Assembly (NCBI GenBank): GCA_040219255.1
Contig: JAVJSW010000060.1
Location: 6,249-70,248, forward strand
DNA from: Sumerlaeia bacterium
Lineage (GTDB): Bacteria; Sumerlaeota; Sumerlaeia; SLMS01; JAHLLQ01
Direction: 5' to 3'
DNA: 64,000 bases
Numbering within the stretch: the first letter of the stretch is position 1; every line of letters begins with the position of its first letter. Below are positions 17,445 to 62,979 of the stretch, in pieces. A program made the position numbers and the translations under genes. A model generated the notes under the pieces. The model had not been told where the DNA came from and did no database searches. It was given only the letters and a program-made list of their open reading frames with translations.

Positions 17445-17590
17445 GCAGATGGTTGAGTGTGGCTTTTTGGTCACAAAATCTAGCGATTTTTGGCGTCATA
17501 ATGCGTTGTTTTCCATTGTCTCGCAAATCGATGTTAAATTTACTCCGTCCAGCGTTTTCAATGCCCTAACCTTTTCACCCGGAGTTCATC

Positions 17591-18079
17591 ATGAAGTTCC
17601 AGAACATTCTCTTGGCCATGGGTTTCCTGGCAGCTACTTCCATCCCTAATATGACCACCGCTGAGTGCGATACCTGCGGCGGCAAGTGCGAAAAGTCTGT
17701 GTCGGCCAGAGATTACAAGGCTTGCACCAATTGGCTGGGAGGTGGTGGTCAGGTCTACATGACCCGTCACGCGAGCTATCGGTGCGACCGAAACAAGCAG
17801 ATTGAGGGCGGATGCAGCGGCACCACCCCAAGTGGTCCAGCCTATACGATTTTTGGCTACGCCCACAATATCAACGAAAACGAATGCGTCGTGCGCTTCG
17901 AACTGAACGGCACGGTCTCGACGATCATTTCCGATTCAGCCTCGCCCTCATTGCCCGAAGGTTCCGTGGTTCTTTCGGTGACCTGCTATGACCGTGATCA
18001 ATGCATCGTGATCAGTTATGAAGAGCCAACTGAAAGCGGCACTGCGAACGAATGCGCCTACCCGTCCTGCAGCGCCTAG
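17591..18079 (+). CDS. Small secreted cysteine-rich protein (12 Cys), unknown function; low-GC gene
   Basis: Signal peptide 'MKFQNILLAMGFLAATS'; GGAG RBS at 17581; about 54% GC versus about 66% in flanking DNA. Confidence 0.55.
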   Translation: MKFQNILLAMGFLAATSIPNMTTAECDTCGGKCEKSVSARDYKACTNWLGGGGQVYMTRHASYRCDRNKQIEGGCSGTTPSGPAYTIFGYAHNINENECVVRFELNGTVSTIISDSASPSLPEGSVVLSVTCYDRDQCIVISYEEPTESGTANECAYPSCSA

Positions 18080-18174
18080 CCGCCTGCAAGCTTCGGCAAA
18101 TAAACAATGCTTCCATCTCAAACCCCTTGGCTCTCCTATGCCAAGGGGATCTTATCATCTTTAAGGACCGCTTC

Positions 18175-19533
18175 ATGTCATTCAGATACTGGGTCGTCTT
18201 ATTCATCTTTTTATGTCCCCTGATCGCATTTTGTCAAGAGCCTGACATTCGTGATTTTCCCCCTTTGGAAGCCGCAATCGCATGGCCAATCATCGAGCAG
18301 GGGACGTTCGAAGGCGTCGTGGAATCTTCCGGACCTCCTCCGATGACGTCACGCGAGGTGGAAGCAAGTCTAATGGATGTCGAAACCGACTTTCTTGCGA
18401 CTTTAGCGGAGAGTGGTGAGGAGCTGTCGGCGGATTACCGGGAGATACTGGACGAATTCCTTGAGGAGCAAAGAGGTATATTGGAAAAGCTGCTTCTGCC
18501 TACGAATTCAAAAAAGAATTTTACGGTGTCGCTTTCCGGTCACCAGATGCGGCTTGAGTCGAGGATTTACGAGGATGATAGTTCCGTTTCCGAAGAGACG
18601 ATGACGGTGATTGGTCCAGAGGGGAAAAAGATCCTCACATCGAATATCCGATATTCCCGCCCAAGTGCCTACATATTTTTGGACGATGCCAAGAACGCTC
18701 CGGAAGACGCTATTTACGGCAACATCCTGGGTACGATCGGGACGGAGTTAGCCAAGGCGTCCACCCTGAATTTGTCGAGCAAGGATCTGGAAGGCGACAA
18801 GGTCTATTGGTTCGAGGCCACGGACATCAAGACAGACTTTTTCGACATTTACAGGGATGGCGCGGTTTCCTTCACGCGTATTGGCGTACGCTCTCAACAC
18901 GGCAACCGCCTCTCCGTCTATTTCAGCCAAGTTGGCGAAACCTTTCGACTCATCAATCGATATGACGACTTCCGAGAGGTTCCTGGATGGGGGTGGTATC
19001 CGCATGAAATCACGCTCATAACTCAGAATGGCGTCTTTGACAAGGAGGTTCTCCAGCGTATCCGCTCCGGGGCTCTGGCCCCCAACACCGACGAAGCGAT
19101 CGCCGCCTTCGCCCCTCAAGTAGAGAATGTGAAGACGATTACTTTGAGCAAAGTGGACATCGAAACACCGGTGGAAAAAGACGTTTTCGATTTCGAAATT
19201 CCAGTCGGCACCGTAGTCAAAGTCTACACCGGAGATGAGTCCAGCACCTACGTTCAGGGGGACTTTTCCGCGAGAGATGTTGTTACCGGCAGAAAGGTTG
19301 ACATGGCGGCGGGTCTGGAATTGGCCGAGGGAACTTCCCAGACTAAGGAGGAGATTGCCGAAACGCCTACACGTGAAATTGTTTCCGATACGCCCGCCAA
19401 GGTGGAACAGAAGGTAGAACCGCATGTCGTCGAACCAGCGAAGTCCAAGCGAAATGGAATGATCTTCGGCCTTCTTGCCGTTTCCTTCGTTATTGGCTTG
19501 GGACTTGTATTCAAGGTCTTTCGTAAGAAGTAA
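18175..19533 (+). CDS. Secreted protein with a C-terminal TM anchor, unknown function (possible LolA/RseB-like fold); low-GC gene
   Basis: ATG at 18175 with N-terminal signal peptide 'MSFRYWVVLFIFLCPLIAFC'; C-terminal 'GMIFGLLAVSFVIGLGLVFKVFRKK'; about 48% GC. Confidence 0.55.
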   Translation: MSFRYWVVLFIFLCPLIAFCQEPDIRDFPPLEAAIAWPIIEQGTFEGVVESSGPPPMTSREVEASLMDVETDFLATLAESGEELSADYREILDEFLEEQRGILEKLLLPTNSKKNFTVSLSGHQMRLESRIYEDDSSVSEETMTVIGPEGKKILTSNIRYSRPSAYIFLDDAKNAPEDAIYGNILGTIGTELAKASTLNLSSKDLEGDKVYWFEATDIKTDFFDIYRDGAVSFTRIGVRSQHGNRLSVYFSQVGETFRLINRYDDFREVPGWGWYPHEITLITQNGVFDKEVLQRIRSGALAPNTDEAIAAFAPQVENVKTITLSKVDIETPVEKDVFDFEIPVGTVVKVYTGDESSTYVQGDFSARDVVTGRKVDMAAGLELAEGTSQTKEEIAETPTREIVSDTPAKVEQKVEPHVVEPAKSKRNGMIFGLLAVSFVIGLGLVFKVFRKK

Positions 19534-19679
19534 TTTCCCTATCTCCACAGCGAATCTCAGTCTCCACAACGATCCAAATCTGCGCGGCCTTTCCCACGGC
19601 CCCCACCTCCCACTGCCTTTTGCAACGCATCGAAAACGTTGACACCGAAATGTGGTGCAATTAGGAATGCGTTTGGATT

Positions 19680-19985
19680 TTGCGGGCGTACAAAGGAGAA
19701 GTGGAAGGCTATTCCGATCAGCGAATCCTCGCCGACTGCGATCATTTCGGTTTCGAACTCGCCTCGCCTCCGACCCCTTGGCTGCGGGCGATGGCCTCGC
19801 GAACCGTCCGCGAATGCCAAGATGCTCTCCGCGTGGAAGCCACCGCCCAAGGCTGCTCTCCCGAAGTCGTTGAGGAGGAGATCGGCTGGGAAGTGCTCGC
19901 CCAGAAGAACCCGAATCGCTCCGTCCTTACCCAGCCTCCCGATTGGGTTGAGAATGTTTGCGGGCGGTACTTCGGGTCCCGCTGA
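19680..19985 (+). CDS. Possible small protein (101 aa), TTG start; hypothetical
   Basis: GC3-rich codon pattern consistent with host coding; aaaggag motif overlapping the start; no recognisable domain. Confidence 0.3.
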   Translation: MRAYKGEVEGYSDQRILADCDHFGFELASPPTPWLRAMASRTVRECQDALRVEATAQGCSPEVVEEEIGWEVLAQKNPNRSVLTQPPDWVENVCGRYFGSR

Positions 19986-20383
19986 ACTCTGTCAGCCCCG
20001 CACCCGCCACCCCCGACCAAATTAGACCGTGATTTTCAAACGCCTTGGGTCTCGCTCGCCAGGTTACAAAAGTTTTCTTCGCTTTTTGGCGGAATAACGA
20101 GAAGCTGTCCCCGAAGCCGCGTGCCTCATTGCAAGCCCAAAGTGCCAAGATCGGACGGCTTTATCAAAATCTAACCCACGGTCCAGGCTTTCGTAAGACT
20201 CGAAAACAGAGCGTATTGCACCTGTCTCCGAACCGACCCGGGATAAAAACCCATCGGGCCCCCGCAAGCCACCAAGCAACTTTTTGTACTCTCCAAAGCG
20301 AAGAGCTGGATATTTTCGATTTTTTTCTCAATTGTTCACCATTGATTCCTTGCCAACATCCCCCACAAGGCGCCCACCCAACC

Positions 20384-31007: not shown

Positions 31008-31079
31008 GTTGGCGCGGCCCGAGGGCTTCGCAATCTTCTTGATTCGAACCAGCTTTGGGGCTCATAGTCGTCCAACCGA

Positions 31080-31164
31080 GCGAGCGTGGCGGAATTGGCA
31101 GACGCACCAGGTTTGCGTCCTGGCGGGGAAACCCGTGGGAGTTCGAGTCTCCCCGCTCGCACCA
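31080..31164 (+). tRNA. Class II tRNA (Leu-type body, 13-nt variable arm, A73, encoded CCA) whose anticodon loop reads UUUGCGU, giving anticodon UGC (Ala) as read
   Basis: Manual fold: acceptor GCGAGCG/CGCTCGC; D-arm GGCGGAATTGGCAGACGC (near-identical to bacterial tRNA-Leu); anticodon stem CCAGG/CCTGG; T-arm GGGAG-TTCGAGT-CTCCC. Confidence 0.7.
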
Positions 31165-38693: not shown

Positions 38694-38761
38694 GGGAAAG
38701 GGTTCCGAGGGAGAAATGGCGTACCCACCCTGAGCAAAATGGGCACCGGACGCCGCGGCGG

Positions 38762-39499
38762 CTAGACGACCGGTTTGGGGTGAACCAGCAGGAGGTTGGC
38801 GTCGTAAGTGACGATTCCCAGCAGAATCGCCGCGATAGCGTGTTCCGTGGCGACCCAGTAGAAGTGGTCGTTTTCGGCGTAGGGGTTGGTATGGAGGGGA
38901 TCGGCGACCAGGACGCGGCGGCGTTCGCTGTCCATGCCGCAGAGGACGACGAAATGGCCGGCGACTTCGCCGGCGACGTCGTCGAGAATCGCGACGCGGC
39001 CCTCGAAACGCTCGCGCGCCGAACGATACAGGAACGTCGCGTTCAGGCCCGTGAGCAGCGGCATGCCATCCTCGACGATGTGCTCGGCGAGGAGTTCGTG
39101 GGAGAGGTCGCGCATGCGCAAGCGGCCGCCCATGGTGAGAAACTTCAGGTAGCCGGCGGTGGCATCGAGAAGTCTCTCGTTATTGGACTTGGAATCGCGC
39201 TGCTGACGTAGTTTTTCGCCGATGTCGACCTGGGGGCGATGGTTTTCGCCGAACCAGGTGGGGTCGAAAACGTGGACGTTGTGGGTATAGATGGTCGCGT
39301 CGTAGCCGCGTTCGAGCGCATGGCAGCCGAGAAAGACCGCCAGGGTGCCGCCCTCGGGGAATTGAGGGGCCTGCGCGATCACGTCCTTCAAACTGATTTC
39401 GTCGCCGTGATAGGCGTAAATGGCCTGGAGGCACGTCGGACCACAGGTCACGTCGTCTGGTTGGCGGTGGATTTTGAGGGGACGGGGAATAACGAGCAT
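38762..39499 (-). CDS. Papain-like cysteine peptidase domain protein (C39/BtrH-like)
   Basis: 'DDVTCGPTCLQAIYAYHG' resembles the C39 Cys active-site motif; ATG at 39499. Confidence 0.45.
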   Translation of the reverse strand: MLVIPRPLKIHRQPDDVTCGPTCLQAIYAYHGDEISLKDVIAQAPQFPEGGTLAVFLGCHALERGYDATIYTHNVHVFDPTWFGENHRPQVDIGEKLRQQRDSKSNNERLLDATAGYLKFLTMGGRLRMRDLSHELLAEHIVEDGMPLLTGLNATFLYRSARERFEGRVAILDDVAGEVAGHFVVLCGMDSERRRVLVADPLHTNPYAENDHFYWVATEHAIAAILLGIVTYDANLLLVHPKPVV

Positions 39500-39794
39500 C
39501 TCGGCGGTTTCTCCTTAGAAACCAACCAGAGAGGATGGCGCAGCCAGGCGCCGAAAATCAAGCACTTGTATGAGGGCTTGATAAAACCTTGGAGCGCAGA
39601 GGGGAAAAGTGGCCGGGAGGACAAAGTTGCCACGGATCGGCACGGATGGGGATTCAGATAAACAGAACTAAATGAATATTCTCCCGCATCCGTGCCCCGT
39701 TCAGGATCGAGAGACCCAGGCGGCTCCAAGCCGCGCCGGAGCGATCCCCCTCAGTGAAGCCTCTCTCCTCTGTACCCTTCTGTGGTTATTGAGT

Positions 39795-40217
39795 TTACCC
39801 CACCAGCTCCGCGTCCGAGAACCAGAGCGCCAGTTCGCGCGCGGCGCTTTCCGGGCTGTCGCTGCCGTGGACGATGTTTTCGGTGACTTCGGTGCAGTAG
39901 TCGCCGCGGATGGTGCCGGGCAGGGCGTCGGCGGGCTTGGTGGCGCCCATCATCTTGCGGGCCAGCGAAATCGCGTCCGGGCCCTTGACCGCCAGGGCCA
40001 CCAGCGGGCTGCCGGTCATGAAGGCCTTCAGGTCGGCGAAGAACGGCTTGCCGACGTGCTCGGCGTAGTGCTTGTCGGCCAGTTCGCTGCTCATTTTCAT
40101 CATCTTCAGGCCAGCGATGGTGAGGCCTTTGGCCTCGAAGCGGCCGATGACTTCGCCAATCAGGCCGCGCTTCACGCCGTCGGGCTTCACAAGAATCAGG
40201 GTGGTTTCAACTGCCAT
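39795..40217 (-). CDS. ndk: Nucleoside diphosphate kinase
   Basis: 'TLILVKPDGV' and 'NIVHGSDS' active-site His region; ATG at 40217. Confidence 0.9.
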   Translation of the reverse strand: MAVETTLILVKPDGVKRGLIGEVIGRFEAKGLTIAGLKMMKMSSELADKHYAEHVGKPFFADLKAFMTGSPLVALAVKGPDAISLARKMMGATKPADALPGTIRGDYCTEVTENIVHGSDSPESAARELALWFSDAELVG

Positions 40218-40383
40218 GGGTCGGGGTCTCCCGGGTATTCGGTAAGGTGCTCAAATGCGGTGGGAGCTTGCCCGGGGCCGGGGGGCGCGGGTCAACCTTG
40301 TCTTTGGGGGCTGCGGGGGATGAGAGGCGCCTCGACAGGAGAAGGATGCGCGTGGACGAGCGCTTAGCACAAAACCATTTTAT

Positions 40384-41139
40384 CTAGTTGTAAATAAACA
40401 GTCCTGCTTGACATCTCGGATTTTGTGGGAAATCCTTCAGCCATGCTCCCCTTGCGGTAGAACCGCAGGGCTGACGTCCGCCTCTTCGGAGGCGGCGTCT
40501 TTTTTTTAGCGCCACTTTGCCGGCTTTGAAATCGAGACACCAGGAACCAGGAGCGACCTGGATAATATCGGGCATCTGCGACGCCTTCAGTGTGGATTTC
40601 CAGATATCTCTCTTAGAGTCAGCAACCTGCTCGAGGTCGAAAGATTTCCTCTTCGGTGGAAAAGCGACTCGAATCTCTTGTTCGATTTTTCGGCGCTTGA
40701 TGAAACGAATTGGAGGAACCAAATCGCTATCGGCGGAGATCAAGAGTGTCACATCGCACTCTTCGTCGTATGCATCGGTCAGCATTTGCACTGCGATGTT
40801 AACATCCGTCATTTTCTCTTCCGCCCGAACAAAGGGGTAAGAACAGCGAAAGCACTTGCTCTTCTTGTGAAGAAAGTTGCCGTAAACCACAGTACAATCC
40901 CGCAAGGTCTCCACAGCCTCCAAGTAGGCGTTTTGCCTTCGCTCCTTTTGCGGATCAGCGGCAGAGGCGGAAACTCGCGATGTAAAATAATATGTGTGTG
41001 ACAGAGCTTCGTCGGATTTGACGAAGGCGGACGCCAACTTCACAAAATCCAACCAATAATACCTGCGAAATGAAGCACTCTTCATTCCGTAGTACAGGTT
41101 GAATCCATCGATGTATGCAATAACCCTTTTCTGTTCCAT
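40384..41139 (-). CDS. NYN-domain (LabA/DUF88-like) predicted ribonuclease; low-GC gene overlapping the nrdJ stop (TGATG)
   Basis: 'VIAYIDGFNLYY' NYN N-terminus and 'LISADSDL' acidic motif; about 50% GC; ATG at 41137-41139 shares its A with the nrdJ TGA. Confidence 0.6.
   Translation of the reverse strand: MEQKRVIAYIDGFNLYYGMKSASFRRYYWLDFVKLASAFVKSDEALSHTYYFTSRVSASAADPQKERRQNAYLEAVETLRDCTVVYGNFLHKKSKCFRCSYPFVRAEEKMTDVNIAVQMLTDAYDEECDVTLLISADSDLVPPIRFIKRRKIEQEIRVAFPPKRKSFDLEQVADSKRDIWKSTLKASQMPDIIQVAPGSWCLDFKAGKVALKKRRRLRRGGRQPCGSTARGAWLKDFPQNPRCQAGLFIYN
40473..40508 (+). terminator. Orphan plus-strand intrinsic terminator, antisense to the 3' part of the NYN ORF
   Basis: Hairpin gacgtccgcctcttcggaggcggcgtc followed by T9; a TTGACA hexamer lies at 40408-40413. 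Confidence 0.55.
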
Positions 41140-44100
41140 CAACTACACCCCGTCGTCCCCCCGCACGTTTCGCATTTCAGGCAGGTGCCGTTGCGCACGA
41201 GGGTGAAGCTGAAGCAGGACGGGCAGGGGTCGCCTTCGTAGCCTTTCAGGCGGGCGATGCGGATTTGTTCGTCGCGGGTCATGGAGGGCTCCTGGGTGGC
41301 GGCCGTCGAGGCGGACGGCGCGGCGGCGGCCTTGGGGCCTTGGGGCTGGCGGGCGGAGTCGCCGTGGTTCACGGAGGCAGGACTCGGCGAGCCGGGGCGG
41401 AAGTGCTCGCTGACTGGCGGGCGGGCTTCCGAAGGCCGCGGCGTGTCGATGGAGACGACCCGTTCGCTGACGAATTCTTCGCCGTCGAAGTCCGGCGCGG
41501 CCTGGGCCGCCGAGCCCATGGCGTCGTGGCGCAGGTCCTCGGGGCTGACGTGGGCCAGATCGTAGCGGCCCAGGTAGCTGATCGCCAGCTCGCGGAAAAT
41601 GTAGTCGATGATCGACGTCGAGCGTTTGATGTGCGGGTTGCCGCGGACGACGCCGCTGGGCTCGAAGCGCGTGAAGACGAAGCTCTCGACAAACTTCTCC
41701 AGCGGCACGCCGTGCTGCAAACCCATGCTGACGGAAATGGCGAAGCAGTTCATCAGGCTGCGGAAGGCGGCGCCTTCTTTGTGCATATCCACGAAGATTT
41801 CGCCCAGGCTGCCGTCCTCGTATTCGCCGGTGCGCAGGAAGACCTTGTGGCTGCCGATGACGGCGCGCTGGGTATAGCCGCTGCGGCGTTCGGGCAGCCG
41901 GCGCCGGCGGCTGATGTAGCGGTAAATCAGGCGCTCGGCGATCTGCTGGGGCGAGGCGTCGGCGGTGATGGGCGCGAGCGATTCCTCGGCCACTTCCTCC
42001 GCCTCTTCCTCGTCGAGGAAGGCGAGGTCGCTGGCGGAAATGTTGAGCGGCTGGCTGAGCTTCGAGCCGTCGCGATAGAGCGCGACGGCTTTGGTCATCA
42101 GCTTCCACGCCGACATGTAGGCGTTCTTGATGTCGTCCACGCCGACTTCGTTGGGCATGTTGATGGTCTTGCTGATGGCGCCGCTGATAAAGGGCTGGGC
42201 CGCGGCCATCATCTTGATATGGCTGGGATAGGACAGGAAGCGCTTGCCGTACTTGCCGCATTTGTTCGCGCAATCGAACACCGGCAGGTGCTCGTCGCGC
42301 AGCTCGGGTGAGCCTTCGACGGTCATGCGGCCGCAGATGTGATCGTTGGCGGCGGCGATTTCTTCCTTCGTAAAGCCAATGCCCTCAAGGACGCTGAAGC
42401 TCCAGTCGTTGAGCTGCTCGTCGCTCAGGTGCAGGTACTTGCGGCAGTTCTCCTCGCCCAGCGTCCACTTGTTGAACACGAAGGCGATGTCGAACGCCCC
42501 GTGCAATTGGGCCTCGACGGCGTCGAGCATGGCGGGCGTGAAGCCTTTTTCCTCCAGCGTGGCGCGATTGACGAAGGGCGCGCCCTCCAGCGTCAGCGAC
42601 CCCCGCGCGAAAGCGATGATGCGGTCGATCTGGCGGTCGGTATAACCCAGGTGGCGCAGCGCCGCGGGCACGCTCTGGTTGATGATTTTGAAGTACCCGC
42701 CACCGGCCAGCTTCTTGAACTTCACCAGGGCGAAGTCGGGTTCGATGCCGGTGGTGTCGCAATCCATGACGAGGCCGATGGTGTTGTGAGAAATGAACCC
42801 GTTGGCGATGTAGGTGACGTTCTCCGGCACGGAAATGTCGTAGGTCAGTTGCTCGCCGCCGTCTTCGTTTGTGGCGACGGCGTCGTAGAAGAATTGCAGC
42901 GCATGGCCGAGGCGCGGGTCGCCGCTCTCGCGGTAGAGGGTTTCCGCCGCGCGGCGCGTGATGGCGCCGCCGTGGCGCTTGCGCGCGAGGGCGATGGCGT
43001 TCTTCAGCCCGGCGCCGGCGGCCACCGGCGCCAGCTCTTCCAGGACCTCGGGGGCGACGAAAACGTAGTCTTTGCGCGCGGCTTGTTCGTTGTCGGCGGA
43101 GCGCACGGCGGCGGACTTGCGTTGGCCCATGAATCCGATCCAGCGCTGGAACGCCGCGTTGTAGGACAGGTTGCGCAGGCGGCTGACGAACAGATCGCTC
43201 TGGCCCCAGCCGCTCGTGTCCACCTTGGTGGTCGTCGGCAGGCCGAGCGTCAGCAACAGCGTCTTCACCTCTTCGCAGAACTCGCGGTGCGACGTGCTCC
43301 AGCACGGAACGTCCTGGGTCACGGTGCCATCGGCCTCATAGAGCCCGCGCAGGAACGCGCCGTAAACCAACGGATCGTTCGCGCCCAGCACGGCATCGGG
43401 GATGCGGGGCAGGTAGCCTTTGCCGGAATGGCCGGCGCTGGGGGCGGCCTTGGTGAACCCGCAGGCTTCCCACCAGAGCGTCAGCGGCACGCTGTGCAGC
43501 GAAACGCCGGTGTAGCCCTTTTCCTGGGTCACGATGGCGTCCAGGTTGAAGAGGCTCTTGGCGAGGGCGCAGAGGCGCTCGGCGACGTCCCTGTCCCCGG
43601 GCGCGACGCACAGGCGCAGGCCCTTGGCGTGGAGCGACCCATCGCCCATGAAGTACCCGACGAATTCCGCCAGATCGGCCGACATGTGGCGCGGCACGCG
43701 CGTCGTGTAATCGCCGGTCCAGTATTCCTCGCCCAGCGGCGGCAGGTTCACCGCCACCGGATCGCCCGCCAGCGCCCCCATCATCAGAGGCACCACATCG
43801 CCCGGCTGCACGTCGGCGAACCGGCGCCAGACGTGCTCGCCGGTGGCGGCGTCCACGACTTTGATGCGGTGCTTCAGGGTGCCCTGAATCGCGTAACCGG
43901 CGTCGGTGCGCAGGCGCCGCGTGTCCTCGACGCCGTTGACGAAGAACTTCGTGGCGTCGCGCTCGCCTTCGTCGGTCATGACGCTGAAGTCCGCGTCCTG
44001 CCAGCGGTCGCCGTTCACATCGCCGAGACGATTCAGCCGCATCAGGCCGCGATTGGTCGAAACCATCGATCCCGCCACCAGGCATCCTGTCGGCGCGATC

Positions 44101-47100
44101 ACCGTGGTCTGCGCGTTCCGGTATCCGTGCCGCTCGCCCATGTCCAGGGCCTGGTCCCAGGCTTCGCGGGCGGCTTCCAGGAGGGGGGCGGGGCAGTGCT
44201 CCGCCGCGATGCCCATGGGCGTCACGGTCAGGTCCTCGTAATCCGAGGTGTGGGCGTCGTAGGCGGCGCGGCGGTGGTTGCGCATGACGCGAAGCATGGG
44301 CTCGCGGTTGGGGGCGAAGCTGGGGAAGGGGCCCTTCTCGGCGGCGATTTCGGCGCTCGTGGCGTAGGACGTGCCGGTCATCAGCGACGTGATCGCGCCG
44401 CAGACGGCGAGGCCCTGGGGGCTGTCGTAGGGAATGCCGCTGACCATCAGCAGCGTCCCCAGATTCGCGTAGCCCAGGCCCAGCGTGCGGAACTCATAGG
44501 ACAGGCGGGCGATGTGCTCGCTCGGGAATTGGGCCATCATCACGCTGATTTCCAGCGTCAACGTCCACAGCCGGCAGCCGTGGCGGAAGTCCTCGATGGC
44601 GAAGGCGCCGGTTTCCGGATCGCGGAATTTCATCAGGTTGAGCGACGCGAGGTTGCAGGCGGTGTCGTCGAGGAACATGTACTCCGAGCAATTGTGAACC
44701 ACGATGCCGTTGGCGACGAAGTGGCTGGAGACGGGCTCGGTGAGGTCGAAAACGTCCTCGGTGCCGCAGGGGGTGAGGGAGGCGACGCGGTCGTAAGGCT
44801 TGTCTTCGTAGGCTCTCACGGTGGCATTCAGCTCTTTCAGGCGCGCGTTCTTTTCACTGCCTTCCAGGAAGCCGATTTGCTCCTGGAAAACGACACGCGA
44901 GGACCGCGAAATCCGCATCGAATGCATTTGCGCGACCGCGTATTCCTTCAGCCCGCCCTTACCATCGGGCAGAAGTGCGGTCTCCTGACCGAGGGCGCGG
45001 CGGTTCTCGTAGATCTTGGCCTTGATGCCAAAACCGAGCAGAATCATTTGGACTTGGCGCAGCAACTCCAGGCTCGTGCTGTCGAGCGCCACGTACTGGC
45101 TTTTGTCGCCATAATTCGCGACAGTGCCATCGGCCGTGAAGAGGCCCCGCAGAATGGCGGCCTGGCTGATGCTGTCGAGGGCGTAAACCTGATCGGTGAA
45201 AGCCTTGGCGGCGGAGCCTTGATCGAGGTGGGCGTACTTGCGCAATTCCTTCAGCACCGCGCTCACCGACGTTCCGACGCGCAGGCCAGTCTCCGTCTTG
45301 GTGATGAGGGCCTGTCGCACTCCGCGCTGATCGCCGGTGCTCAAGGTTTCCTTTGCCTCGCTCAGCGCGGCGTTCAGGTGGGCCGCGACCCGCTCTTCCG
45401 CCTCGCCGACGGTCAGGAACAGGAACTCCTGGCCTTTCGCGCCGGTGGTGATGCAGCCATCGCCGACCGCGGCACCGAGCACCTCGCCTAGGCAAACCGG
45501 CAGCGCCTCCCTTCCAAACCCGCTCCCCTCCAGAATCACCCGGTCATCCGCCGTCAGCTCGCACGCCGGCACATCGCCGCGGTTCGCTGTCAGGACCTTG
45601 TGGTCGGCGGTCAGGCGGAGGCGATAGCCGCTCGCCGTCTTCAATTCGTAGATCGGCTTGTGGCCCGTGGGGAAAATCTTGTCCACCCAGACCGCGTCGC
45701 CGTTGCCGTTGATGATTTCCGCGCGCTCGCCCACCATGTCGGCGATGCGGCGCAGACCGCTCGTGGTGGCGACGAGGGTGTCGCCGGTGACGCACGGGTT
45801 ACTCGCATTGATCCGCCCGCTCGCCGGGCAGGTGTGCCATTCGTTGATGGTGGTGTCGTACTGCACGCCGGGATCGGCGCAGGACCACGCGGCGTAGGCG
45901 ACTTTGTCCCACAGCTCCCCAGCCGGGACGGTGCGCGCCGTTTTGCCGTTCGTGCGGTTGATCAGCGCCCAGTCCGTCTCCGCTTCCACCGCTTCCAGGA
46001 AGGCGTTCGAGAGGCGGACGCTGTTGTTGCTGTTCTGGCCCGACACCGTGAAGTACGCTTCCGAGTCCCACCCCGTGTCGTACTCCTGGAATTCGAGCTT
46101 GGTGTAGCCCTCGCGGGCCAATTGGATGACGCGCTGGATGTAATTGTCCGGCACTCCAGCGTCGCGGGCGTCGCGCACGGCGCGGCGCAGAACCTTGTTC
46201 TCGCGGGGGTTGTAATTGTCGCCGAAGAGATCCGCGTCGGCGTCGTTGCACGCCGTCATGACGGCGTTCAGGTGGCGGTTGCACAGGCGCGAGCCGCTGA
46301 CCAGGGCGGCGACCTTTTGCTCCTCGCGGACCTTCCAGTCGATGAAGGCTTCGACATCCGGATGGTCGATATCCAGGACCACCATCTTGGCGGCGCGGCG
46401 GGTCGTGCCGCCACTCTTGATGGCCCCGGCGGCGCGGTCGCCGATTTTCAGGAAACTCATCAGCCCACTGGACTTGCCGCCGCCCGAGAGCGGTTCGCCC
46501 TCGCCGCGGATGCGCGAGAAATTCGACCCCGTGCCCGACCCGTACTTGAACACCCGCGCCTCACGCGTCCACAGGTCCATGATGCCGCCGTCGTTGACGA
46601 GGTCGTCATCCACCGATTGGATGAAGCAGTTGTGGACGAGGATGCCGTTGGCAAGGAAATAGTGGTCAGCCGTGGTCAGATCATAGACCTCGTGCTCACC
46701 ATCCAACTCCAATATACCTCTAACCTGTCGAACAGTGAAGTCTTCAGAAATGTCCTCATAGCCGGAGATTTCTTGACCAAAGTATAGATTTCTGGTATTT
46801 CGCAAATACTTTGCAGCGCACAAATAGTGGCCCACTTGCAGCGACTTTGCTTGGCAATCGTGGCGTACGTTATTTTCATAGGTCTGAACCACGTGGTCGT
46901 GAGTGACTCTTACCTTGCCAAAGTTTTCTGTTGCTATAACTTCATGAGAAAATGTTATTTCAACAAGCCGCTTCTTTGTAGGTTGCTTGACTACGTATCT
47001 AATATCTTGGAGCACCCGCTGATCACGAGAAGCTATTTTGTATTTGCCAATTGGCAGTTTGATGCCTCCTTTTTCATCTACATGAGTTGAATGCTCTTGA

Positions 47101-47807
47101 ACGCAATAAGCATAAAACTGATCTATGCGAATTCCACTGTGCTCGGCGGTCGAATCATCTTCGGCTCTCAGTTGCTCCCAACGTGAAGAGTTAGTGGGCT
47201 GAACATATATCTGTACATACGTATCCCCCGCCACACACGCGTGCGGCTGCGGGTGCTCGTAGGCGTTCGCCGACTTCTCCAACTCGCCCGTGAAGGGATT
47301 GACGAAGCTGTGGCCTTGGGCCGGGCCGGTGATGCCGTAGGCCCAGTGGAGCCCCGTGTTGAACCATTGGGGCGAGTTCGGCGCCGCCTTCTGAGCCGCC
47401 AGCATGTGGCACATTTCGTCGTAGTAGGCGCGGGCGTCGGCTTCGGAGGCGAAGTAGCCGCCGCGCCAACCCCAATAGGTCCAGCAGCCCGCGAGGCGAT
47501 GGAAGACGGCGCGGGCGTCGCGCTCGCCGCCCATGGCGGTGCCGGGGGCGGGCACGCGGCGTTGCAGCCATTCGGGCACGCCGTCCTCGGCCACGGGCAC
47601 CGATTCGGCGGGGATGCCGGCTTTGCGGAAATACTTCTGGGCCAGGATGTCGACGGCGATCTGGCTCCAATGATCGGGCACGGCGATGTCCTTGGCCTCG
47701 AACACCACCGAGCCGTCGGGGTTCACGATGCGGCTGGTGCGGGTGGAGAAGGGAATGGCGGCGTAGGGGTCGTTACCGGCGTGGGTGAAGCGGCGGGTGA
47801 TGTTCAT
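41139..47807 (-). CDS. nrdJ: Adenosylcobalamin-dependent ribonucleoside-triphosphate/diphosphate reductase (class II, NrdJ) interrupted by three in-frame inteins; C-terminal Cys-rich tail
   Basis: Extein motifs '[10 protein letters not shown]', 'GGGKSSG', '[11 protein letters not shown]', '[22 protein letters not shown]' and 'CPSCF...CLKCETCGG'; ATG at 47807; 2222 aa, of which about 1217 aa is extein. Confidence 0.9.
42783..44084 (-). mobile_element. Intein 3 (434 aa) with LAGLIDADG homing-endonuclease domain, inserted at APTG|TIGL of NrdJ
   Basis: Starts 'CLVAGSMV', ends 'NGFISHN' followed by the +1 Thr; '[10 protein letters not shown]' and '[11 protein letters not shown]'. Confidence 0.8.
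44691..45794 (-). mobile_element. Intein 2 (368 aa) with LAGLIDADG homing-endonuclease domain, inserted at NPC|SEY of NrdJ
   Basis: Starts 'CVTGDTLVA', ends 'NGIVVHN' followed by the +1 Cys; LAGLIDADG-like '[10 protein letters not shown]' and '[11 protein letters not shown]'. Confidence 0.8.
46629..47237 (-). mobile_element. Intein 1 (203 aa mini-intein) inserted before the Cys of the ACFI motif of NrdJ; AT-rich
   Basis: Starts 'CVAGDTYV', ends 'GILVHN' followed by the +1 Cys; DNA is visibly AT-rich relative to its flanks. Confidence 0.8.
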
Positions 47808-48425
47808 GGTCGGGGTCCTTGCGGCGGAGTGGGAGTGGATCGGAGCGGCGTGCGGGGACGGCCATGCCTTCGCTTTTCGTTCGTCGAGGCCAATGGGCCT
47901 CCGGCGGCTGGTTTGGCGGCGGAAGTTCCCATTTGGTTTTTGGAAAAGAGGGGAGGGATACCCCGGACTTTTCCACAGCTTCCAGCAAAATCGGCACAAC
48001 GCGGGGATCAGACGCGTTCCCCTAGATGTTGTACCGTGGTTGTGTAGAAGCGCTAGATATGGCGACTGCTGCAAACAAAAAAACGCCTCGCCAGCAACCC
48101 GAGTGAACTCAGAGGGATGGCGTTTTTTCGGATTTCCGATAGAAATGGTGTGGAAAACTGGAAGCCTTGAAATCCTTCGCTTTGCCGCCCAAGCCAGCGG
48201 ACCGCCCGGCTTCTGTCAAGGAGCAATAAATTTCCGATTTTTGGAACGTGAGGGACCGCGACGGGGGGCCGGCCGCCGTGGCCACGACCGGCGGCGCCAT
48301 TTCTTCAAGAGCCAACCTTCCTCCCACGCCCCCGCAAGTCCGCTCAAACCGGAAACCCGGAGCCGCCGAACTCAACGGCCCCGGTCTTTCAAGAGACGCC
48401 GCGGGTCACGGGCGGGACGCCCGTG

Positions 48426-50192
48426 TTACCTTTCGGCTTCCAAGTCGTGGGGCGCCAGTCGTCCCTCCGCCCAGGCCACCAGCCGCTCCTTGCGCCACGT
48501 GACGACGACCGCCACCGCGAACACCGCCAGCGCCGCCGCCACCATCAGCAGCGACGCCGGGACCTCGCGGACGAGGCGCCACGTTCCCCAGCCCGCCACG
48601 AGCAGTGCCTGCGCCGCGCCGGCCGTCTTCAGCGCCATCTCGTGGCGCCAGAATCCGATGACGAGGAACCCGGCGATTTCCGCCGCCAGGAACAGGCCGC
48701 CGACCCAGCCGGGGTGCGCCGCCGCCTGCCACAACCCCAGCCCCGCCAGGACCCAGGCCCCGCACCATCGCTCGGCGTCCGGGCGGTCTTGGAACACGAA
48801 CAGGTCCATCAGCAGGTAAATCGCCAGCGCCGCCTGCATCAGCTCGGGAATGTGGGTCCGGTACGGCCCCGGCAGCCATGAGCCCGCCAGGAAAACCGTC
48901 AGCCACGCCGCGCCGGTCCAGGCCCAGAACGTCTGCCGGAACGCCGCCACCGCCAGCCACAGGACCCACACGCCCCAGACCAGGGCCAGCGGATGGCCCA
49001 CGACCCACAGGAACACGCGCTCGAGGGCATCGATCACCACCGCCCACGTAAAGCCTGCCGCCCCAGTCGTGTACAAACCACCCACGACCGCTAGCCCACC
49101 CAGGACCGCGAGGCGCTTGAGGAACAGCGTCTCGCGCCAGCGCAGCCACCCCGCGATGTACGTGACGCAGACCGCCGCTCCGCACGCGATCAGCGGCAGA
49201 CTGCCGGCCAGCACCGGCGGCGCGGCCAGGGCGCTGTGGCTCGACATCTTGCCTGTCACGTCATAGGGCCCGCCCGAGACGATCAATGCCCCGACCGCCA
49301 GCGCGTCCAACGCGAACACGCGCCCGGCGAGACCTTCGCGATCGCGGGCCGTGTTCACCAGGAACCAACCGAGCCCCAGCAGCGCCGGCGCCACATAGAG
49401 CGCGTAGAAGTAGATGTCGTGGATCTTCGCCGACTCGACGTGGTGGGCGATCATCAGGGCGAAGGGCACCAGAGCGATCCAGCGCGGCAGCCACCATTGC
49501 TGGGCCCTGGTGGCGTAATCGGGGCGGCCGTCGCCGATCTTGAGAACGCCGGTCAGTGCCGGCATCGCCAGCATGTAAAGCAAAGGAATCCAACCGATGG
49601 CGTAGTAATACTCGACCCGCGGGAATTCGCGGCCGCGGTTCAGGGACTCGGGCAGCAGATAGATGAACGCCGCCGCCATCACAAAGCCGAGGAACGCCCT
49701 CGGCGACAGCCGCAACTTCACCAGCATCATCAGGATGAAAAGTTTCAGCGGCGCCGCCAGGAAGCAGAACACCGCCCAGCGCAGCGTGTCGCCCCGCTCG
49801 AAGGTCAGCAGCGCGTTGGCGAAAAAGGTGGGGTCGAGAAGGAGCAGCACCTCGATCTGAAAGAGCACGTAGGCGTCACTCAGCTTGCGGAATCGCCGCA
49901 CGATGGCGATGGCTGTCGCGATGACCAGCAATTCGTACAGGTGCAGGATGCTCATGGCCTGCAACGTCGGCCCCGGGTCCTGGTTCTCGAACGTCGTGGC
50001 GGCCATGATCTTGTAGCAGCCGACGATGATCAGCAGGGCGCTGATGGGGTAGAACACGTTCTGGCGCAGGGCTTCCGCCGTGGATTTCCAGAACAGTTCG
50101 CGGACGTTCGAGGGCGGCGGGGCTTGGGGCTGGAAGACGGTGGAAGTGGGGTCTGGGGGGAATTCGGAGGCGGGAGAATTCGTTGTGCTCAT
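48426..50192 (-). CDS. Hypothetical polytopic integral membrane protein (over 12 predicted TM segments)
   Basis: ATG at 50192; long hydrophobic segments throughout; no domain recognised. Confidence 0.6.
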   Translation of the reverse strand: MSTTNSPASEFPPDPTSTVFQPQAPPPSNVRELFWKSTAEALRQNVFYPISALLIIVGCYKIMAATTFENQDPGPTLQAMSILHLYELLVIATAIAIVRRFRKLSDAYVLFQIEVLLLLDPTFFANALLTFERGDTLRWAVFCFLAAPLKLFILMMLVKLRLSPRAFLGFVMAAAFIYLLPESLNRGREFPRVEYYYAIGWIPLLYMLAMPALTGVLKIGDGRPDYATRAQQWWLPRWIALVPFALMIAHHVESAKIHDIYFYALYVAPALLGLGWFLVNTARDREGLAGRVFALDALAVGALIVSGGPYDVTGKMSSHSALAAPPVLAGSLPLIACGAAVCVTYIAGWLRWRETLFLKRLAVLGGLAVVGGLYTTGAAGFTWAVVIDALERVFLWVVGHPLALVWGVWVLWLAVAAFRQTFWAWTGAAWLTVFLAGSWLPGPYRTHIPELMQAALAIYLLMDLFVFQDRPDAERWCGAWVLAGLGLWQAAAHPGWVGGLFLAAEIAGFLVIGFWRHEMALKTAGAAQALLVAGWGTWRLVREVPASLLMVAAALAVFAVAVVVTWRKERLVAWAEGRLAPHDLEAER

Positions 50193-62714: not shown

Positions 62715-62979
62715 AGTATCGTCTCCTCCGGCAATATGAGTCGCTTTCTGGACTCTAAGAGTCATAACGTAGGAGAGCGGATTGGCCATGACAAGAGTTT
62801 TCGGCAAGTAGTTGCGCCGGAAAGTCGAATCGGTGCAGGAAACTGTGTAAAGAGTGACAGGCCCGGATATGGGAGGTCGCATTTCTCTCGAGGTTCGGGC
62901 GCAGAAAAAAGGGCCGGGAGAGCATACGCCCCCGGCCCTTCGACTGATTCTTCGCTGCCTGTTTGGCCGAACGGGCCTC

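Follow-up and report, generated by a model that had tools for sequence, protein, structure and literature searches.

The window, by which we mean the whole stretch of 64,000 nucleotides (64 kb) analyzed here, belongs to a Sumerlaeia (BRC1) MAG. The feature under study is a hairpin followed by a run of T on the plus strand, next to a gene encoding a protein with an NYN domain. The NYN and Ndk proteins of this locus have been deposited as MEQ8821536.1 and MEQ8821535.1, respectively, and are encoded by the same 332-kb contig. Every gene adjoining the plus-strand terminator (nrdJ, NYN, ndk, and the gene for a C39-like peptidase) is carried by the minus strand (Table 1). The initial annotation of the locus, made from the sequence, had stated that the terminator is not preceded by a coding sequence on its own strand. 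This proved to be the case, as no credible plus-strand coding sequence was found upstream from the terminator and the only ORFs present there on that strand are antisense to ndk.

Table 1. Features of the nrdJ–NYN–ndk region. Coordinates are those of the window.
Feature	Coordinates	Strand	Basis or remark
C39-like peptidase gene	38762-39499	-	
ndk	39795-40217	-	
ndk upstream region with TTGACC -35-like hexamer	40218-40309	-	Conserved with L001
Strain-specific segment with NYN and three hairpins, 828 bp	40310-41137	-	Absent from L001
Annotated NYN ORF, 251 aa	40384-41139	-	
Non-native NYN tail, KKRRRLRRGGRQPCGSTARGAWLKDFPQNPRCQAGLFIYN then stop	40384-40505	-	Frameshift product
Putative sigma-70-type promoter, TTGACA (40408-40413), 17-nt spacer, AATCCT (40431-40436)	40408-40436	+	Matches of 6 of 6 (-35) and 3 of 6 (-10)
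Hairpin 1, GGATTTT/GTGG/GAAATCC	40418-40435	+	Inside putative promoter spacer and -10 region
Hairpin 2, CCTTGCGGT/AGA/ACCGCAGGG	40450-40470	+	9-bp stem including one G.U, AGA loop
Rho-independent terminator, GACG-T-CCGCCTC/TTCG/GAGGCGG-CGTC then T8	40473-40507	+	Sequence and folding
Native NYN coding region (PADLOC HEC-09 family)	40506-41139	-	Repaired 208-aa protein compared with 206-aa homologues
7-nt tandem duplication, TCCTGGT|TCCTGGT	40539-40552	-	Three-frame translation
nrdJ, class II ribonucleotide reductase with intein and LAGLIDADG domains	41139-48074 (listed ORF)	-	Start probably nearer 47807

The annotated NYN ORF extends beyond the end of the native gene. Three-frame translation of its 3' end revealed the C-terminal motif of the family (...SKPAKWR), followed by a TAA codon, in another frame. 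The change of frame is caused by the perfect 7-nt duplication of TCCTGGT, which sits in GCTCCTGGTTCCTGGTGTC, 11 codons ahead of the native stop, and which generates a 251-aa ORF running to position 40384. Removal of one copy of TCCTGGT led to a 208-aa protein ending in QVAPGVSISKPAKWR (...KPAKWR, then stop). The repaired protein could be aligned without gaps to the very end of the 206-aa family, including the terminal motif GFxLxRPxxW[KR] and its stop, and recovered the invariant residue P204. About 6,500 NYN homologues were found, and the best 120 that were listed typically comprised 206 residues and covered ca. 78% of the 251-aa ORF. The 45 extra codons (KKRRRLRRGG...FIYN) result from translation of the A-run and the hairpins out of frame, and such a tail was absent from every NYN homologue examined. 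We also analyzed 38 homologous NYN loci obtained from viral contigs and from three close homologue contexts. The stop codon was located 1-10 codons from the end of the alignment in 36 of these loci, the stop having been mislocated by the script in the other two (L039 and L042). Thus, the deposited 251-aa protein MEQ8821536.1 is a frameshifted form of a 208-aa HEC-09-type protein, and the main value of the analysis lies in this correction of the annotation, together with the identification of a strain-specific HEC-09 cassette.

The position of the native stop has a direct consequence for the feature on the opposite strand. The TAA codon (40508-40506) is located at the edge of the T-run, and an RNA ending at the terminator would therefore face the 3' untranslated region of NYN rather than its native codons. 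The initial annotation had proposed that an antisense transcript overlaps the C-terminal codons of NYN. This overlap is an artefact of the frameshift introduced by the 7-nt duplication, since the native TAA abuts the T-run.

The repaired NYN protein matched the PADLOC profile of the HEC-09 family (PDLC04163) with an E-value of 1.8e-74, over profile positions 2-203 of 203, and the Pfam NYN domain with an E-value of 2.5e-11. The protein contains the residues that are invariant in the NYN alignment (D11, D112, D137, and D139) as well as the C96/C99 pair. HEC-09 has been described as a candidate single-gene defence system consisting of a MARF1-like NYN RNase embedded in Hma systems, and one representative expressed in E. 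coli did not confer protection against phages (bioRxiv 10.1101/2024.01.29.577857). Homologues displaying ca. 50% identity with the NYN protein of the window adjoin genes for DndB and a transposase in one context and for HD, TIR, and Cas3-like proteins in another, or are located between tyrS and folD, a pattern expected for a mobile accessory gene.

Comparison with a related strain indicated that NYN and the three hairpins belong to one strain-specific segment. A metagenome contig, designated L001, encodes an identical Ndk and displays 97.4% identity with the window over positions 38723-40309 and 95.7% over positions 41135-41226, at the 3' end of nrdJ. Nothing in this contig could be aligned to the intervening segment, 40310-41137. 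The corresponding slot is occupied by ca. 200 unrelated nucleotides that are predicted to fold as one extended hairpin whose arms comprise 36 bp (-93.7 kcal/mol, z = -5.0). The right junction of the segment lies one base past the TGA codon of nrdJ, so that the ATG codon of NYN (41139-41137) shares a single base, the A of TGATG, with the stop codon of nrdJ (41141-41139). The left junction is located 14 nt upstream from the TTGACC hexamer in the conserved upstream region of ndk. It follows from these positions that the two strains differ over the entire spacer separating nrdJ from the ndk promoter region. The GC content of the segment is 47-50% for flanks of 60-74%, which points to a recent acquisition. 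Judging from these features, the NYN gene has apparently been acquired horizontally and the segment is apparently foreign; absence of the element from the closest relative indicates that it is not a core gene. Neither a target-site duplication nor terminal (inverted) repeats were visible at the ends of the cassette. An integron attC site was also considered and rejected, since attC would be a single long imperfect palindrome whereas the segment contains three distinct hairpins, and since a GTTRRRY core was found at neither junction. The locus offers a clean case of a candidate defence gene that is placed right at the stop codon of nrdJ, a gene laden with inteins, in one strain and is missing from a 97%-identical relative.

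The segment contains a terminator located on the plus strand. Its stem (40473-40499) comprises 11 base pairs with one bulged U and is closed by a C(UUCG)G tetraloop. The hairpin and T-run reported by the initial annotation are thus both present, although the run that begins right after the stem, at 40500-40507, consists of eight rather than nine T residues. Scanning 5 kb with a lenient tool, which records the stem as 7 pairs including 6 G-C pairs, led to the detection of 8 terminator-like sites for 5.4 expected, the site at 40473-40507 heading the list; this count is uninformative as evidence over chance. We therefore rely on strict criteria, namely a run of at least seven T abutting a hairpin of -15 kcal/mol or lower, applied to both strands (128 kb). 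The site at 40473-40507 was the only one retained in the 64-kb window on either strand, and none was retained in 30 dinucleotide-preserving shuffles. In addition, the window contains a single run of at least eight T, which is the run of this terminator. The terminator is clearly more than a chance occurrence.

The orientation of the terminator is also well defined. The hairpin has a calculated energy of -17.0 kcal/mol on the plus strand versus -16.4 kcal/mol on the minus strand, and each of the three hairpins of the segment is more stable on the plus than on the minus strand. The cUUCGg loop is present in the plus-strand reading. In the minus-strand reading, eight A residues come before the hairpin, and the sequence that follows it, ACGUCAGCCCUG / ACGUCAGCCCUGCGG, contains no U-tract. 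The presence of the U-run on the plus strand only, the UUCG loop, the G.U pairs, and the folding energies together indicate that the element is a plus-strand device rather than a bidirectional terminator serving nrdJ-NYN. The initial annotation had envisaged, as an alternative to an antisense RNA, that the terminator simply acts in both directions for ndk and NYN; a bidirectional intrinsic terminator is not supported, as the U-tract is missing on the minus side of the hairpin. Two further clear terminators were detected in the 64-kb window, at 62910 and 55421. Both are unidirectional and lie on the minus strand, each 3' of the stop codon of an ORF of the same strand, in the sense orientation, according to a crude map based on ORFs with a high GC3. 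This normal location indicates that the organism employs canonical terminators in the ordinary way. We are thus highly confident that the strain-specific NYN cassette contains a real plus-strand terminator. As far as can be predicted from its sequence, this terminator is strong and strand-specific, and it has no plus-strand gene to serve; a short transcript converging on NYN can reasonably be inferred from this arrangement.

The three hairpins might alternatively act on the minus strand, by giving the nrdJ-NYN message a structured 3' end that shields ndk from read-through. They would then be a terminator devoid of a U-tract or one working in both directions, or would block 3' exonucleases. The element does fill the slot that separates the nrdJ-NYN unit from the ndk promoter region, the same slot in L001 holds the other very stable hairpin described above, and a stable fold is also predicted for the minus strand of the 116-nt region (-46 kcal/mol, z = -4.6). 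Against this role, the hairpin of the terminator is followed on that strand by ACGUCAGCCCUG, its eight A residues being upstream and not downstream, every single hairpin is weaker on the minus strand, and the other terminators of the window have normal U-tracts in the sense orientation. A function on the minus strand is therefore unlikely.

We next consider where transcription ending at the terminator might start. The TTGACA hexamer reported by the initial annotation is present on the plus strand and matches the -35 consensus at 6 of 6 positions. The initial annotation had not considered a -10 hexamer; the best one at a distance of 17 nt, AATCCT, matches at 3 of 6 positions, with A2 and T6 retained. 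Promoter prediction had been proposed as a check on the antisense transcript. A scan with consensus promoters called nothing at 40408-40436, because the -10 hexamer has only three matches, and on this point the prediction did not support the initial proposal. TTGACA is infrequent in the 64-kb window, with 7 occurrences on the plus strand and 5 on the minus strand (12 in 128 kb). By an estimate made after the fact, the probability of finding it by chance less than 100 nt upstream from the terminator on the correct strand is ca. 1-2%. The hexamer is directly preceded by a stretch containing 32% GC (40370-40407). Elsewhere in the window, a sigma-70-like sequence, TTGATT-18-CATAGT, can be read just upstream from the tRNA gene, which suggests that promoters of this type are plausible in the lineage.

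If the putative promoter were active, transcription would start near A40443 and produce an RNA of ca. 65 nt (40443-40507) comprising a 5' tail (AUGCUCC), hairpin 2, a short linker, and the terminator. The predicted RNA folds at -35.2 kcal/mol. Its length is in line with the antisense transcript of 60-70 nt initially proposed, as the position of the hexamer does lead to ca. 65 nt; the proposed pairing with native NYN codons is not retained, the codons concerned being those of the frameshift tail. A stem-loop had been noted ca. 35 nt past the hexamer, and hairpin 2 indeed begins 37 nt after it. Its energy is -13.5 kcal/mol on the plus strand versus -9.6 kcal/mol on the minus strand, on which the G.U pair becomes a C/A mismatch.

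Hairpin 1 did not appear in the initial description. It is weak as an RNA structure (-2.9 kcal/mol on the plus strand versus -0.6 kcal/mol on the minus strand, where a G.U pair is again replaced by a C/A mismatch), these energies having been obtained by folding positions 40419-40436, with an offset of 1 nt relative to the coordinates of the hairpin. The same sequence can also be read as a 6-bp DNA palindrome (GGATTT n6 AAATCC), and a role as an operator would be a matter of speculation. Since hairpin 1 would lie in the promoter rather than in the RNA, it is left unaccounted for by the reading based on a ca. 65-nt transcript.

The region was also searched for small proteins. None of the small ORFs in 40310-40510 is hydrophobic or preceded by a ribosome-binding site. 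On the plus strand, the candidates were a 5-codon ORF starting with ATG and a 28-codon ORF starting with TTG and running through the terminator. Both lack a ribosome-binding site, and the start of the latter lies upstream from the predicted transcription start. On the minus strand, an ORF of 26 aa (MAEGFPTK...) was rejected because the sequence GGGGAG is only 1 nt from the ATG codon.

Further copies of the element were sought in several collections. Inside the window, no further match to the element longer than 14 nt was found. Pattern scans led to no match in the genome contigs, no match in two scans of the viral contigs, and two matches in the metagenome contigs, both of which were chance hairpins without flanking similarity. 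A blastn search with positions 40300-41145 against plasmids and phages was also negative. Scanning the genome contigs with the C39-like neighbour led only to Bacteroidota, Pirellulaceae, and Spirochaetales (42-50% identity), and not to any Sumerlaeia; the nearest other Ndk proteins from Sumerlaeia are at most 79% identical, and their loci are not syntenic. Exact look-ups of the NYN and C39-like proteins retrieved no record. Rfam searches of the whole window at gathering thresholds detected only a tRNA, and permissive E-values applied to positions 40200-40620 added chance-level matches only, none above the gathering threshold. Neither a homologue of the element in the collections searched nor an Rfam match was thus found, and comparative support for a functional RNA is therefore absent.

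The surroundings of the homologous NYN genes were inspected for the same purpose. A sense terminator was found within 250 nt of the stop codon in 9 of the 38 loci. Two loci contained a terminator in the antisense orientation, in both cases together with a sense terminator, and none had an antisense terminator only within this distance. In each of the three close homologue contexts, the NYN gene is followed after 18-137 nt by a gene of the same orientation. The convergent arrangement of the terminator is therefore unique among the 38 loci sampled.

The reading that we tentatively favour, at somewhat less than even odds, combines these observations as follows. The element would be a plus-strand terminator with a preceding 9-bp hairpin, located directly 3' of the native stop codon of an acquired NYN gene, which stops antisense transcription and may end a convergent RNA of ca. 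65 nt. Polymerases travelling along the plus strand would be halted at 40500-40507 and would not reach NYN and nrdJ in the antisense direction. Transcription would originate from a dedicated promoter, TTGACA-17-AATCCT, following the stretch of low GC content, and the resulting RNA would be complementary along its entire length to the 3' untranslated region of the nrdJ-NYN message. The weakness of the -10 hexamer, the failure to find the element elsewhere, and its absence from L001 argue against this explanation. Production of a dedicated ca. 65-nt RNA from the TTGACA promoter, taken on its own, is a possibility that we hold with slightly more reserve.

The terminator could also be a passenger from the donor genome devoid of any present function. 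According to this explanation, a plus-strand gene of the donor converged on NYN, the last codons, the 3' untranslated region, and the terminator of this gene were kept, and TTGACA occurs by chance. At most, the terminator would passively block stray antisense transcription coming from the ndk side. Such a relic would fit a segment that is strain-specific and still low in GC, as expected for a recent acquisition, an element that is conserved nowhere in the collections searched, a weak -10 hexamer, and a frameshift in NYN, a sign that selection on the cassette may be relaxed. At the left edge of the segment, 58 nt (40310-40367) are GC-rich and one plus-strand frame, which might represent the last codons of the donor gene, is open up to a TAG codon (40365-40367), ca. 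110 nt before the terminator. However, an open frame of 19 codons in GC-rich DNA does not amount to evidence for a gene, and its length is insufficient for homology searching. A relic also leaves to chance the perfect TTGACA hexamer, its optimal spacing, and the AT-rich sequence upstream, the hexamer being expected here with the probability of ca. 1-2% estimated above. On balance, we prefer the dedicated RNA, the relic terminator being a serious contender that appears nearly as likely.

The initial annotation had gone further, comparing the arrangement with type I toxin-antitoxin systems or with antisense control of a nuclease gene. The NYN nuclease would then be toxic, and the RNA would be a cis-acting antisense sRNA that serves as its antitoxin or dedicated regulator. 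This proposal can point to a convergent promoter-like hexamer and a terminator beside a nuclease gene in the same mobile segment, and to the assignment of the NYN protein to a candidate defence family of predicted RNases. Several observations speak against it. The RNA would have no overlap with native NYN codons, the partner is a soluble protein of 208 residues rather than a small hydrophobic peptide, and antisense-only terminators are found at none of the 38 homologous loci, nine of which have ordinary sense terminators. In the close homologues, the gene of the same strand located 18-137 nt further on leaves too little space for such a unit. Expression of an HEC-09 representative in E. coli (bioRxiv 10.1101/2024.01.29.577857) also counts, weakly, against the need for an antitoxin RNA. 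We consequently regard an antitoxin, or a dedicated regulator of this kind, as highly improbable.

The most far-reaching reading would be an NYN/HEC-09 cassette provided with its own convergent RNA of ca. 65 nt; by pairing with the NYN message at its 3' end, this RNA would control how much of a potentially self-harming RNase is present. We consider that there is little chance that this is correct. If it were, the locus would be an RNA-controlled single-gene defence module, similar to type I systems except for a large enzymatic effector, and the frameshift would correspond to a secondary inactivation of the nuclease. If the sRNA is real and regulates NYN, it could plausibly provide a first indication of the way in which HEC-09 genes are restrained.

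The element can finally be compared with known systems. It shares with canonical Rho-independent terminators a GC-rich stem closed by UUCG and directly followed by U8. The preceding hairpin and the short single-stranded 5' segment are shared with orphan small-RNA genes and correspond to the usual anatomy of short bacterial sRNAs. In contrast to a typical sRNA gene, the -10 hexamer is weak, conservation was not found in the collections searched, and the segment is strain-specific and apparently foreign. The CU-rich 5' single strand (UGCUCCCC) followed by a hairpin and by a terminator hairpin with a U-run is reminiscent of the Betaproteobacteria toxic small RNA (RF02278) and of Hrs1 (RF02628). 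The resemblance is limited to the architecture, and membership of either family was rejected because the cmscan scores are at chance level, with 12.7 bits for RF02278 (gathering threshold of 50) and 22 bits for RF02628 (gathering threshold of 56.4), the latter on the opposite (minus) strand.

Type I toxin-antitoxin systems with a convergent 3' overlap include txpA/RatA and bsrG/SR4, and their toxins are usually hydrophobic peptides of less than about 60 residues. The locus shares with these systems a small convergent unit adjoining the 3' end of a gene that might be harmful, both being carried by the same mobile segment. It differs from them in three respects, since the partner is an NYN-domain protein of 208 residues instead of a membrane peptide of less than 60 residues, pairing would involve the 3' untranslated region only, and the homologues of NYN lack an antisense partner (0/38 for antisense-only terminators). 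The neighbouring gene, once repaired, matches HEC-09 (an NYN/MARF1-like RNase with a Zn-ribbon) over its full length, although the gene present here is frameshifted near its end and joined to nrdJ by a start/stop overlap. Taken together, these comparisons place the element among ordinary predicted intrinsic terminators, with the possible addition of an orphan cis-antisense sRNA gene, rather than in a new kind of element.

The ATG codon of NYN, a predicted nuclease gene, shares one base with the TGA stop codon of the class II ribonucleotide reductase gene nrdJ (TGATG, positions 41137-41141, minus strand). NYN is absent from the closest relative, the metagenome contig L001. In the latter, the slot occupied by NYN (positions 80-300 of that contig) contains a hairpin of about 180 nt, the arms of which measure 36 bp; its folding energy is -93.7 kcal/mol (z = -5.0). 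The presence of NYN in the window and of a long hairpin in L001 at the same place indicates that the spacer between nrdJ and the next gene, ndk, is a site of exchange between strains. Within NYN, tandem duplication of a 7-nt motif shifts the reading frame 11 codons ahead of the native stop codon. Thus, the deposited 251-residue protein MEQ8821536.1 is the frameshift product of a 208-residue protein of the HEC-09 type, a candidate single-gene defence family.

Comparison of nrdJ with Pfam revealed three Intein_splicing and two LAGLIDADG stretches. NYN, a mobile nuclease gene, directly adjoins this intein-rich gene. The TTGACA hexamer and the hairpin followed by T7 present in the nrdJ leader region are both located on the minus strand, upstream from the likely start of nrdJ. 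The region possibly functions as an attenuator or as a leader resembling a riboswitch; no match to Rfam was detected for it, even at E ≤ 1.

Coordinates and strands of the features discussed
Feature	Position	Strand	Remarks
Longer ORF in the 17475-20045 stretch	17591-18079	+	
Longer ORF in the 17475-20045 stretch	18052-19533	+	
Sigma-70-type promoter	31039-31068	+	TTGATT-18-CATAGT; readable in the sequence
tRNA called tRNA-Ala(UGC)	31080-31164	+	Sole tRNA within the window
Tandem 7-nt duplication	40539-40552	-	TCCTGGT x2; within NYN
nrdJ	41139-48074	-	About 2,220-2,310 codons
nrdJ leader region	48075-48430	-	TTGACA at 48219; hairpin + T7 near 48083

The stretch extending from 17475 to 20045 may be another foreign island. 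It is devoid of any ORF that reaches a GC3 of 0.72, which was the minimum value applied in the crude gene map of the window, and contains four of the twelve TTGACA hexamers of the window, at positions 18237 (minus strand) and 19037, 19298, and 19639 (plus strand).

The sigma-70-type promoter ends about 11 nt upstream from the tRNA gene and is a useful standard for predicting promoters in this phylum, which has been little studied. The tRNA itself (85 nt) harbors a long variable arm of class II, with a stem of 4 bp and a loop of 3 nt. Its D stem comprises 3 bp, and its D-loop is of the Leu type. A73 and G37 are present, and positions 3 and 70 form a G3-C70 pair in place of the G3:U70 pair required by AlaRS. 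On the basis of these sequence features, the molecule looks like a Leu-type tRNA body harboring an alanine anticodon, in which case it would be a candidate mistranslating or recoding tRNA.
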